A DNA stretch of 64,000 bases from Candidatus Dadabacteria bacterium (lineage in GTDB: Bacteria; Desulfobacterota_D; UBA1144; Nemesobacterales; CSP1-2), in contig PSLL01000003.1 in the NCBI GenBank assembly GCA_040289575.1, positions 35,739 to 99,738 on the forward strand, read 5' to 3'. Below, piece by piece: positions 30,001 to 33,000 of the stretch. Each line of letters opens with the position of its first letter. Position 1 is the first letter of the stretch. Position numbers: made by a program.

Positions 30001-33000
30001 AGGCATATAATTGACAACTCAGAATACAAGCCACTTATTTCGGTTGACGGCGGAATTAAATTGGATAACATTCGAGAAGTGGCCGAGGCTGGGGCGGATA
30101 TATTTGTTTCTGGTTCAGGTATATTCAAGACCAAAAACTATGCCGAAACTATATGGGCAATGAGAAGAGAGGTAGAAGATGCTGGAAGGAAAAGTGATAG
30201 ATAGTACCCTTTGGGTAAAAGGACAGATTGAGGGAAAGATTGAGAGAGGGCATTTTAAATCCGCCATTCCTCTAATTGAGAAACTCCTAAGACTTGGGCG
30301 AAACAGCCTAACCCTCAAGGAGTTTGCATACGCAAACCTCGGACACGCATACCTATCTCTAAGGAGGTTTGATAAAGCCGAGTACTGCCTAAAGAAGGCT
30401 ATTAAATTAAACCCTAGGGAGTCGCGTTATCACTACCTTCTCGGTCTTGCCTATAGCGCATCTGGCATGATTTCAGATGCCCTTAAGGAGTTTGAATACA
30501 CAGTCCAAATAGTTGATAATAAAAGCGAGTATCAGCGTGCCCTTGGTTGGGCAAAGTTCGTTTCTGGACAGACCACAGAGGGAATAAAACACTTAAAAAG
30601 GGCATTGGATTTGGATAATAGGAATGTCTATGCCTATGCTGACCTTGCATCATGTTATATGAAGATGAACCGGTTTAATGAGGCAATTAGAACTCTAAGG
30701 AAGGGACTCTTGAGGGTTCCGGGGGATCCCTTTTTACTCCGCACACAAAATGTGGTTGAGCGTACGGGGGATGAATATAAGAAGGTTAAAGAAGAAGAGA
30801 AAAGGGTCAGGTATAGAATTGATAAGATAAAGGATTCTGAATTTCACAAGGTAAGAAAATCGCTTCTTCAAGGGATGAGGCTGGCTGGATATAGCGAGAC
30901 TCAGAAAAAGAGCGCCGAGAAGCTCTGGTACGATTTTTATAAAATGAGGAAGCTCCAAATCAGGCGTCCCGAGAGCTGGGCTGCTGCCCTCGAATACACT
31001 ATAGCGAGGTTGGACCTAATAGAAGGGGAAACACAAAAGACGGTTGCCTCTAAATACGGTGTCTCGGAAACGATTGTTTCTTCTCGATTTAACGATATAT
31101 GCCGTACACTTGACATTAGGGTCTTTGATAAAAGGTACTACTCTATAGAAGAGGATTTCTTCATAGGTATATTGCATGGCCTCTCTCTCAGGGATGAGTA
31201 GTGTGTCGGGTGTTGGATATTAGGTGATATGTATGTGCTATTACCTGAATATCTAAGAGATATGGCATATAAAAACTCATACATTAGTGACATACAAAAT
31301 TACTTTCTTTTTCTGGTTGACAGGGGAATTATGCTCTCCCCTAAGGATTATGATCTCATTATGAAATGGAAAAGAAGAGGAGTTCCCAAGGAGATTGTAT
31401 ATAGGGGTATAAATAAGGCGATTGAGAATTTAAGGAAGAAAAGAAGCAGCATCTCATTTTTAAGAGGTCTTGATGAATGCGCTCCGTTTATTGAGGGGGA
31501 GATAAGGAATCACCGGAGCAGTATGGAGAATGAATCTGTCATCGAATCAACCAGAGGTGACATTATTAAAAGGGTTGCCGAGAGACTTGCCGCAATAATA
31601 ACGAATGAAAATATGGAGAGTATAAGGCGACACTATATAGAGATTAGAAAAAGGGTTTTGGATTTGACGAATTCAAATGAGGATGTTTTTAAGGCAATAG
31701 AGAAAATAGAAGAGGAATCCTATGAGGACTTTTTTCAAACCCTGTCCCCAGAGGAAAAAAAGAGGATAGGGCAGATGGCCGAAGGTATGATTGACAAGGA
31801 AAGAGGACATCTTATGACCGATAAGGCCCGACGCGAAAGTGTTTTATCATTTCGTAATGAGATACTGAGGAGGGATTACAAACTAATTAGGATATTCTCA
31901 TAACACTTAAAAACCATGGTGAGGGTAATTAAAGGCAAAACCATAGGGTGTGACGGTTGTCGTTGGAGGGGATACTCTGTTGAAAAGAGGGGAGACCTTT
32001 CTATAGCGAGGGTTTGTGAGTGCATATTAGGAAACCTAGAACGCAAACGCGCTGGTTGCCCGGAATGCGGTGGTAGCGGTTCGGTTCTATCTAAAAATGA
32101 AAGAGGGTACACCTGCATCAATATCTGTAGTGTGTGTGGGATAGCACGAAGAAAGGTAAAATTATACAACCTGGCAGGTATTCCGGCTAAGTATTGGGAG
32201 GTACTTCAACCGGATACATTTTATCCCAAGAATGGATCGCAACAAGATGCACTTACGTATGTAAAGGACTTTGTAAAACAATACCCACATAAGAAGGGTT
32301 TTCTTCTTATGGGAGGGCCTGGTCGCGGCAAAACACATCTTGCCATTGGAGCTATATCTGAGCTTACACTGGAGCGCGGAGTGAAATGCATGTTTAAGGA
32401 TTTTTTTCACCTTCTTTCCGAGCTTAAAGAGGCATACTCAGAGGGAACACCGGAGAATACGGTGCTCTTTCCCCTTATAGAAACCGAGGTTCTTGTCATA
32501 GATGAGCTTGGTAAAGGAAAGAGCAGCGATTGGGAACTCAATATACTAGATCAATTGATTTCAAAGAGATATAACGCATCAAAGATGACTTTGGCAACCA
32601 CGAATTATGTTTCCAGAGGGTATGCAATGCGGAAGGATGAAGAACAGCAAATACTTGAAGACAGAATTGGGGAGAGAATTGCTTCAAGGCTCTATGAGAT
32701 GTGTGAATTCATATATATTGAGGGCGACGACCATAGAGGCGAGGGCCATAAAAAGGCAAGAAAGAGGGCCTAAAACCTCCAAAACCCGGAGTGTATCCTT
32801 TTTACATTCTCTATAACAGGGTCTACCTTTGTCTCTTGTGTTAGGTCTTCATAATCGGTCTGTGTCTTTTCAAGTAATTCATCGATCACCGCTTTTGTAG
32901 ATTCCCAGAGGCCGTCTAGATTATATCCGCCTTCGAGGATTAGAATTATCTTCCCCTTGCAGTGTTCCTCTGACATCTCTTTTAAAAATCTGGTCATTTG

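Follow-up and report, generated by a model that had tools for sequence, protein, structure and literature searches.

A resident DnaC/DnaI-type protein and its DnaD-like partner, a probable helicase-loading module of the phylum labelled Candidatus Dadabacteria

Which protein loads the replicative helicase in bacteria where DciA is not found? A firm answer to the question of helicase loading exists in no more than a handful of model organisms; according to the leading evolutionary account, phage-derived ATPases replace DciA. The question is raised here by a 64,000-nucleotide stretch of a genome labelled Candidatus Dadabacteria (C116:35739-99738; hereafter the window, with a contig-to-window offset of 35738), where the gene of a DnaC/DnaI-type AAA+ protein follows that of a small helical protein. 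A first-pass annotation had read this arrangement as a replacement of DciA by a DnaC/DnaI-type loader, and as a further, separate case of such a replacement. The first part of this reading is in agreement with the data reported below, since DciA is undetected and a loader is resident phylum-wide; the second part is not, since the same pair is also resident in other lineages. The pair is probably a helicase-loading module that descends from phages and is now resident in the chromosome, made of a DnaD-like adaptor and a DnaC/DnaI-type loader.

Anatomy and family membership of the two genes

The features of the locus are collected in Table 1. Both previously annotated ORFs were found at exactly the expected positions, separated in this genome by 12 nt; the annotated contig coordinates fall on them when the offset is taken as 35738, in place of 56048. 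The true start of the partner may be a GTG at 31235, with AGGTGA 7 nt upstream, or the ATG at 31262, which is the start of the orthologues. The convergent gene downstream overlaps the loader stop codon by 4 nt.

Table 1. Features of the loader-partner unit and of its neighbours, in window positions
Feature	Position	Strand	Basis
TPR protein, 340 aa, HTH-like tail (context only, outside the unit)	30179..31201	+	TPR families
Partner gene, 224 aa, DnaD-like, two helical domains	31229..31903	+	ORF; phrog_7498; AF2 model
Partner N-domain, residues 15-103, conserved DnaD-like helical domain	31271..31537	+	most conserved alignment block
Partner C-domain, residues 109-217, helical	31553..31879	+	ortholog alignment and AF2 model
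Loader gene, 285 aa, DnaC/DnaI-type AAA+ protein	31916..32773	+	PF01695, phrog_50, Aquifex DnaC 3ecc
Loader Cys-rich N-terminal domain, residues 12-74	31949..32137	+	eight invariant Cys; AF2 model
Loader AAA+ ATPase domain, residues 126-275	32291..32740	+	PF01695 match
Loader Walker A, GGPGRGKT	32312-32335	+	within AAA+ domain
Loader Walker B, VLVIDE	32489-32506	+	within AAA+ domain
Histone-deacetylase-family gene, convergent (context only)	32770..33822	-	PF00850 at 2.6e-103

The loader matches PF01695 at 6.4e-17 (62.3 bits, with a Pfam cut-off of 24.1) and the phage family phrog_50, "DnaC-like helicase loader", at 3.6e-44. When PDB sequences are searched, the ranking already given in the first-pass annotation is reproduced: the best solved relative is Aquifex DnaC (3ecc, 2e-30 over residues 92-274), and the other matches are E. 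coli DnaC (6qel, 8.7e-13), 2qgz (1.7e-12) and IstB (5bq5, 3.9e-10). DnaI (2w58) matches at 1.9e-6. Walker A and Walker B are intact, and R218 is invariant. In one family of the same phylum, f5, the Walker B D-E is changed to D-G in four of four sequences, and one lacks the Walker A lysine.

The N-terminal domain features the pattern CxxC...CxC...CxxCxGxG...CxxC. Its eight cysteines (C12, C15, C34, C36, C48, C51, C71, C74), described as invariant along with Walker A, are indeed so in 23 of 23 order-level sequences; family f9, with genomes of ~1 Mb, does not retain all eight. The domain is presumed to bind two zinc ions. Its AF2 model (pLDDT 80.5) consists of four strands and one helix, and matches neither a solved DnaI N-domain nor any other fold: the best E is 0.9 for Foldseek against the PDB, where UvrA zinc modules appear at probability 0.2-0.3, and the best Z is 3.3 in a wide VIA-align comparison.

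The partner had been described as belonging to no known family. This is true for Pfam, while in PHROGs it matches phrog_7498, "DnaD-like helicase loader", a label to be taken as annotation. The window protein scores 2.6e-5 over residues 15-110. Of 25 orthologues, 21 match this family, the strongest at 4.2e-11; among the 83 wider relatives, 56 do so, down to 1.9e-15. By PHROGs, the partner is thus classified as a divergent DnaD-like protein. Pfam DnaB_2 (PF07261) matches two of the 83 wider relatives (best 7.1e-5), but not the partner itself at E<=1, nor any protein of the genome at E<=10. NCBIfam gave no meaningful match. Searches against PDB sequences were equally negative: nothing under E 0.17 for the single sequence, nothing under E 0.37 and no DnaD chain for an N-domain profile, only coiled-coil and designed-helix noise for a full-length profile.

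The AF2 model of the partner (pLDDT 86.6) has no Foldseek match in the PDB at E<=0.001. By VIA-align, its N-domain resembles the DnaD-domain chains 2i5u (Z 5.9, rmsd 2.7, 68 aligned) and 2zc2 (Z 5.7, rmsd 2.9, 66/75 residues, 21% identity), both scoring below AAA+ lid bundles (Z 6-8); a structural likeness this weak, exceeded by unrelated helical bundles, had been seen before. The N-domain carries the motif Y..IE.YFLSL.GKGIMLSS.DY.LI..W..RG.PKE.V..GI..AF, and is the only portion retained in the Nitrospinota partners of 82-90 aa. The C-domain, for which structure and profile searches gave no convincing fold or family match, ends in the conserved motif MTE.A..ESL.SFRNEIL...YG. Among the partner relatives, candidate leads were noted in Acidobacteriota, Aminicenantota and Microvenator.

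Residency of the pair and search for DciA in the phylum

A single-copy loader orthologue, previously claimed for the order, is found throughout the phylum: 114 of the 120 genomes carry it, all 32 genera are represented, and identities range over 35-88%. The partner is present in 98 of the 120 genomes; in 97 of these 98, as judged by comparing by eye the coordinates of both searches, it lies directly upstream of the loader and is co-directional with it; adjacency had earlier been noted at nine of nine family-level loci. The sole exception, genome G024, has its partner 1.65 kb away, on the opposite strand. For 39 of the 42 loci compared, the spacing lies between -56 and +13 nt. In family f9 the loader is retained, but the partner is detected in 0 of 19 genomes. 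The surroundings of the loader are ordinary genes, with no transposase alongside; in five of five closed genomes the unit is not near dnaA. The genome under study has one DnaB and one DnaA. The loader is, in short, resident: single-copy, lineage-wide, in line with the species groups and outside mobile elements.

This pattern bears on another possibility, in which the AAA+ gene would be left over from a prophage or would assist transposition in the manner of IstB. IstB gave PF01695 its name, and IS21 IstB is a member of that family; IstB chains match the loader at ~1e-10, and 5-8 IstB-type copies are present in certain genomes of the phylum. These elements, however, are multi-copy, lie beside IstA and score far lower: about 1e-7, compared with values down to 1e-198 for the orthologue found in all 32 genera. 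The latter is single-copy and syntenic with the partner, and has no transposase beside it. Membership of IS21 was rejected for the window gene, which has no adjacent IstA and whose neighbours are the partner and the deacetylase-family gene. An IstB-type or prophage origin of this kind is therefore extremely unlikely.

No DciA (PF05258) was found at E<=10 in the genome under study, which is 95% complete. A search for Lambda P in this genome was also negative. The absence of DciA, first noted in 41 genomes, holds for the whole phylum: within the reach of sequence profiles and of a set that includes MAGs, PF05258 is found in 0 of 120 genomes, and in 0 of the 94 high-quality ones. A second profile, built from nine DciA domains of a neighbouring phylum, is also negative in the 120 genomes at E<0.01, with six scattered matches at E 0.025-0.7. 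PF05258 was positive in seven of 14 controls; E. coli, B. subtilis, L. lactis and four archaea were silent, and all seven control bacteria other than the DnaC/DnaI organisms were detected. As no DciA is detectable in the phylum, the loader-partner module is the only recognisable loader there. According to Brezellec 2016, dciA and dna[CI] are mutually exclusive; judged by these profiles, the phylum obeys such exclusion (0/120).

A DciA too divergent for sequence profiles might still be present, in which case nothing would have been replaced. DciA domains are short and variable, those of loader-bearing Nitrospinota score only 1e-7 to 1e-14, and the genomes analysed here are mostly MAGs. Such a hidden DciA would nevertheless have to escape, in all 120 genomes, both Pfam and the profile from the nearest DciA-bearing relatives; it would have to do so also in the 94 high-quality genomes, many of them closed, with a Pfam model positive in every non-DnaC/DnaI control bacterium. 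We regard it as very unlikely. The TPR gene upstream of the partner was considered as a decayed TPR-DciA fusion, a type known from Nitrospinota, and rejected: it has no DciA match, and an upstream homologue occurs at five loci among all those fetched, all within the same genus.

The same pair in other lineages

Outside the phylum, the loader is found in 99 of the 107 genomes of a Myxococcales-labelled class, where DciA is found in 7 of 107. Loader and partner are kept together in nine of nine out-of-phylum loci; another 18 loci from Nitrospinota all show the pair as well. Aquifex DnaC (Aquifex aeolicus, 3ECC/3EC2) is biochemically characterised. Aquifex genes match the loader profile at ~1e-45, from profile position 36 onward, fall inside the same tree ingroup and feature an N-terminal CxxCxGxG...CxC; DciA is found in none of four Aquifex genomes. 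Aquifex DnaC differs in having four N-terminal cysteines instead of eight, in being about 50 aa shorter, and in the gene upstream, which is of the SPFH/Band 7 type and not a partner. Aquifex has a distantly related homologue of the partner (176 aa; hhalign probability 86.9%, E 4.2e-6), encoded at another place in the genome, between def and aroA. The module family is also resident in Aquifex, the Myxococcales-labelled class and Nitrospinota, and is not private to Dadabacteria.

These results have to be weighed against the view of the first-pass annotation, in which a phage dna[CI] gene would have been domesticated specifically in Dadabacteria, apart from the seven events already published. As the annotation stated, no such lineage is among the cases of Brezellec 2016, as far as its accessible text goes; the same text lists the resident dna[CI] of Aquificae, represented here by Aquifex DnaC, as event 3 of the seven. 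A literature search found no publication combining "Dadabacteria" and "DnaC". The phylum loaders can form one clade, which is not rejected for 27 sampled sequences (AU p 0.644), and phage DnaC-like genes are related to them at 25-29% identity (214 records). On the tree, however, the loaders of this phylum group with those of Aquifex, Nitrospinota and the Myxococcales-labelled class, apart from the three phage loaders included (SH-aLRT 84-91); the same partner accompanies the loader in all nine outside loci, and its remote homologue is present in Aquifex. Since tree building was quick, and phages are represented by no more than three branches, all very long, a single origin is suggested rather than shown. 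A separate domestication seems unlikely.

In Nitrospinota, 78 of 120 genomes carry both DciA and the loader. This co-occurrence runs against the published exclusivity, and indicates that presence of the loader alone does not imply that DciA has been replaced. DciA domains in loader-bearing genomes reach only 1e-7 to 1e-14. A strong DciA match (E<=1e-15) is seen in 17 genomes, of which 16 have no loader.

Since the module coexists with DciA in these genomes, it need not be the origin loader. It might load DnaB for a different purpose, for instance in replication restart, for which Bacillus DnaD, DnaB and DnaI are also used; DnaB would then be loaded at the origin without the module, or by some other factor. 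The loss of the Walker B glutamate in the f5 loaders and the missing dnaA linkage in all five closed genomes would fit this reading, as would the roughly 8% of 22,350 genomes that are without any known loader according to PMC11087808. On the other hand, no second loader is detectable in the Dadabacteria-labelled phylum, and the strong-DciA Nitrospinota are nearly all devoid of the loader. Moreover, the holders of the module that mostly or entirely lack DciA (0/120 in the phylum, 7/107 in the Myxococcales-labelled class, 0/4 in Aquifex) fit a substitution. The balance makes a task other than origin loading improbable, and the resident chromosomal helicase-loading module remains the preferred explanation.

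Known systems and proposed function

In Bacillus, dnaB and dnaI share an operon. The Bacillus subtilis DnaD/DnaB/DnaI system also combines a DnaD-type helical protein with an AAA+ loader having a Cys/zinc N-domain, the two being here encoded adjacently. Bacillus uses two large tetrameric proteins, in contrast with one small partner here (224 aa; 82-90 aa in Nitrospinota); Pfam DnaB_2 misses this partner, DnaI (2w58, 1.9e-6) is more distant than Aquifex DnaC, and the DnaI N-domain shows no fold match to the loader N-domain model. The adaptor-plus-loader logic is the same: according to PMC13326638, recruitment proceeds from DnaA to DnaD, DnaB, DnaI and the helicase, the DnaI N-domain is zinc-binding and helicase-interacting, and the tail of DnaB binds the DnaI AAA+ domain.

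Phage modules share with the pair the matching families, phrog_7498 and phrog_16826 (DnaD-like) for the adaptor and phrog_50 (DnaC-like) for the loader, and a gene order in which the DnaC-like gene is immediately preceded by one for an initiator or organiser. Leptospira phage LE1 features an N-domain with eight cysteines, and matches the loader profile at 3.5e-35. The pair described here differs in being single-copy, chromosomal and vertically kept across phyla, and its loader shares no more than 25-29% identity with the closest ones from phages. Of the two phage upstream genes checked, the JC1 initiator and one from a Terrisporobacter phage, neither matches the partner profiles.

E. coli DnaC belongs to the same AAA+ clade (8.7e-13), and its job is presumed to be alike; its alignment is limited to the AAA+ part (query residues 102-231), and Aquifex DnaC is by far the closer of the two. 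E. coli DnaC is not known to have a Cys-rich N-domain or a DnaD-like partner. DciA, whose presumed function would be the one replaced here, has an unrelated fold without ATPase; it is undetected in this phylum, and found alongside the module in Nitrospinota.

By these comparisons, the logic of the module is most likely Firmicute-like, and its role chromosomal helicase loading. By analogy with DnaI, the Cys-rich N-domain would grip the replicative helicase DnaB, and the ATPase domain would open or assemble the DnaB ring on single-stranded DNA at the origin melted by DnaA. The partner, by analogy with Bacillus DnaD and DnaB, would connect the loader-helicase complex with DnaA, with the origin, or with the two of them. 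DnaB binding, zinc binding, partner contacts and loading activity are all predicted from similarity.

At the strength given above, a whole candidate phylum is added to the DciA-less, DnaC-type side; a loader accompanied by a small DnaD-like adaptor is found well outside Firmicutes; and several lineages are tied to the Aquifex-type loader, which has a solved structure. A broader reading, put forward tentatively as something rather short of probable, is that the DnaD-like and Zn-DnaC-type proteins make up a single, old helicase-loading system that spans phyla, shared by Aquificota, Nitrospinota, Dadabacteria, the Myxococcota-labelled class and perhaps Acidobacteriota and Aminicenantota, and acquired before DciA was lost. 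If so, Nitrospinota would be a living intermediate with both loaders, its DciA diverging or fused into proteins of ~750 aa; the rule in the literature by which dciA and dna[CI] are never found together would no longer hold, and loader replacement would be open to study in a cultured genus carrying both.

The co-occurrence found in most genomes of Nitrospinota, a sister lineage, is the most interesting by-product of this analysis, and matters more than the addition of one phylum: where both systems are kept, the reason why DciA is usually lost after the arrival of an ATPase loader becomes testable.

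The gene pair and its products

The partner and loader genes lie 12 bases apart. The offset of 56048 for window coordinates is incorrect: the right value is 35738, since the window is C116:35739-99738, and with it the contig coordinates of the first-pass annotation fall on the two ORFs. The start of the partner is uncertain, either GTG 31235, with AGGTGA 7 nt before it, or ATG 31262, where the orthologues begin.

Features at the pair and directly upstream (window coordinates)
Feature	Position	Strand	Remark
TPR protein with C-terminal HTH-like region	30179-31201	+	directly upstream of pair
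Partner gene, 224 aa	31229-31903	+	ORF
Loader gene, 285 aa	31916-32773	+	ORF

No terminator-like site was found between the TPR gene and the pair; the TPR gene is not part of the unit, because homologues at this position are confined to the same genus. The C-terminal region of its product gives weak matches to HTH_Tnp_ISL3, DUF6398 and TFIIB. A deacetylase-family gene is convergent onto the stop codon of the loader. The source genome features a single DnaB and a single DnaA, and a search for lambda P found none in it; in 5 of 5 closed genomes of the phylum the pair does not lie near dnaA.

The loader matches PF01695 (6.4e-17) and phrog_50, "DnaC-like helicase loader" (3.6e-44); JGI already lists relatives of it as "DNA replication protein DnaC". 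Its closest solved relative is, as already proposed, Aquifex DnaC (2e-30), followed by E. coli DnaC (8.7e-13) and 2qgz (1.7e-12), with weaker matches to IstB (3.9e-10) and DnaI 2w58 (1.9e-6). Walker A (GGPGRGKT), Walker B (VLVIDE) and R218 are conserved. The N-terminal 75 residues contain the eight cysteines previously described as invariant (CxxC...CxC...CxxCxGxG...CxxC), and they are so in all 23 order-level sequences. AF2 models this domain (pLDDT 80.5) as two hairpins, two more strands and one helix; compared with solved structures, the DnaI N-domain included, the model matched no fold. Phage DnaC-like proteins can also have Cys-rich N-domains: that of Leptospira phage LE1 contains 8 Cys, and the loader profile recognises this phage protein at 3.5e-35. 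Some genomes (G067, G042 and others) carry 5-8 identical IstB-type copies each, at about 34% identity and limited to the AAA+ core; these multi-copy genes are IS21-like elements, distinct from the resident loader.

The partner had been described as belonging to no known family. This holds for Pfam and NCBIfam, where no family matches it (Pfam DnaB_2 found nothing in the source genome at E<=10), but not for PHROGs: residues 15-110 match phrog_7498, "DnaD-like helicase loader", at 2.6e-5. The same family is matched by 21 of 25 partner orthologues from the phylum (best 4.2e-11) and by 56 of 83 wider-family sequences (best 1.9e-15), among which phrog_16826, with the same label, is the only other recurrent PHROG family. 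The partner family counts 1880 representatives at E<=1e-3, and just 53 at E<=1e-30. AF2 predicts two domains, both helical, at residues 17-101 and 109-217 (pLDDT 86.6). The N-domain model aligns with the DnaD-domain chains 2i5u (Z 5.9, rmsd 2.7, 68 residues) and 2zc2 (Z 5.7, rmsd 2.9, 66 residues, 21% identity); AAA+ lid bundles score above both (Z 6-8), so structure alone decides nothing on the partner, and the similarity to DnaD domains is structurally weak, as first stated. On the basis of the profiles of phage families, which owe their label to annotation and not to a functional test, the partner reads as a divergent DnaD-like protein.

Distribution within the Dadabacteria phylum

Record titles of the phylum genomes read Ca. 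Dadabacteria, Thermodesulfobacteriota or Deltaproteobacteria. PF05258, positive in all seven control bacteria other than DnaC/DnaI organisms, did not detect DciA in any genome of the phylum (see the second table), nor in any of the 94 high-quality ones. A second profile, built from 9 Nitrospinota domains, gave 0 of 120 at E<0.01 and only six scattered matches at E 0.025-0.7. Loader orthologues, 35-88% identical to the window protein, are found in all 32 genera. The lack of a detectable DciA and the conservation of a DnaC-like loader, originally reported for the order, thus extend to the phylum, where the pair is the only recognisable loader.

The partner is present in 98 of the 120 genomes and adjoins the loader in 97 of the 98 containing both, which bears out its description as a conserved upstream neighbour; the spacing is -56 to +13 nt in 39 of 42 loci. 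In the only exception (G024, locus L050) the partner is on the opposite strand at a distance of 1.65 kb, pointing to a local rearrangement. Three genomes (G044, G079, G084) lack the pair altogether, the expected outcome where an assembly misses linked genes.

Two families deviate. In f9 (genomes of about 1 Mb; L039-L046) 16 of 19 genomes retain the loader, whose N-domain has a reduced Cys region. Two profiles found the partner in none of the 19; a ribulose-phosphate 3-epimerase gene occupies the position upstream of the loader. In f5 (genomes of 1.2-1.6 Mb; L047-L050) both genes are present and the 8 Cys are retained, with D-G replacing D-E in Walker B of all four loaders, TTK replacing TTN, and the C-terminal EGxDYRK tail missing; one of them (L049) also misses the Walker A lysine. 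The f5 loader is probably ATPase-dead.

The pair outside the phylum

A pattern search covering a single genome of each species returned 236 relatives, and the best 80 were examined. They include Myxococcales- or Deltaproteobacteria-labelled MAGs, which align over almost the whole length at 38-45% identity, and Nitrospinota, at 40-41%. A partner homologue is directly upstream of the loader in all nine of these outside loci; for the Myxococcales-labelled class the count is six of six loci. In 18 of 18 further Nitrospinota loci it is equally placed, at only 82-90 aa, corresponding to the N-domain alone. The nearest relatives (L061 and L062), at 85-87% identity, are recorded as "Spirochaetia" and "Ignavibacteriales", at odds with all other labels of the lineage and probably label noise. 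For both proteins, relatives are listed under Acidobacteriota, Aminicenantota and Microvenator marinus as well; the range of the pair may be much wider.

Genomes with loader and DciA, by lineage
Lineage	Loader	DciA
Dadabacteria phylum	114/120	0/120
Myxococcales-labelled class around G121 (L132-L136, L138)	99/107	7/107
Nitrospinota, phylum around G123	85/120	109/120
Aquifex	4/4	0/4

Aquifex loci were retrieved by a degenerate pattern. The loader profile recognises Aquifex DnaC at about 1e-45; unlike the loader, Aquifex DnaC has four Cys in the N-terminus, and its gene has no adjacent partner, an SPFH/Band 7 gene being upstream. A 176-aa ORF located between def and aroA (L188:1492-2022, minus strand) matches the partner profile (E 4.5e-5) and, by hhalign, the partner (probability 86.9%, E 4.2e-6, 156 columns): judging from these alignments, it is a probable remote homologue.

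In fast IQ-TREE runs, of 50 and 54 rows and with SH-aLRT as the sole support measure, the resident loaders of all four lineages split from three phage loaders (84-91), and Nitrospinota loaders form one group (97 and 87). In the first tree the loaders of the Dadabacteria phylum make up a single clade (91); in the second, with Aquifex added, f9 joins Aquifex on long branches. When all 27 sequences of the phylum were constrained to one group, the likelihood improved and the AU test did not reject the grouping (p 0.644). A single origin of the resident loaders is suggested at most, since the outgroup consists of only three very long phage rows.

Coexistence with DciA and likely role

Subtracting 7 genomes without a DciA match from the 85 loader-bearing Nitrospinota leaves 78 of 120 with both loader and DciA (loci L137, L139-L142, L145, L157-L174). 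Their loaders have intact Walker motifs. The DciA domain is often N-terminal in an ORF of about 750 aa, in agreement with the TPR-DciA proteins given for nitrospinae in the accessible text of the DciA survey preprint. Strong DciA matches (E<=1e-15) occur in 17 Nitrospinota genomes, 16 of them without loader, a pattern and not a test, as kinship is uncontrolled.

According to the available portion of Brezellec 2016 (PMC5109545), there are seven listed domestications (Enterobacteriales, Aeromonadales, an Alteromonadales clade, Clostridia, Bacilli, Aquificae, Chloroflexi), Tenericutes are unclear, and no genome among 1,426 retained the two genes together. Tominaga 2024, from its accessible part, is an annotation-based survey of 22,350 genomes. 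The accessible text of the DciA survey preprint does not mention "Dadabacteria", "IstB" or "PF01695"; literature searches found no paper for Dadabacteria together with DnaC, and that preprint alone for Nitrospin* together with DciA. The Nitrospinota co-occurrence contradicts the published mutual exclusivity of DciA and a DnaC-type loader.

The pair was first interpreted as a further replacement of DciA, a reading that is supported in part. The Dadabacteria phylum, with a loader and no detected DciA, fits it; against a simple replacement, DciA and the pair stand side by side in Nitrospinota, and either the partner, as in f9, or the catalytic glutamate, as in f5, can be lost. Most likely the pair is the chromosomal helicase-loading module, working in a Firmicute-like manner. 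In Bacillus-type loading, as described in the available part of PMC13326638, the recruitment order is DnaA, DnaD, DnaB, DnaI, helicase; the zinc-binding N-domain of DnaI contacts the helicase, and the C-terminal tail of DnaB contacts the AAA+ domain of DnaI. In the module, one small DnaD-like protein, the partner, would serve as adaptor. The pair belongs to a known kind of system, not to a new one; the most novel thread is the coexistence of DciA with the resident pair in Nitrospinota.
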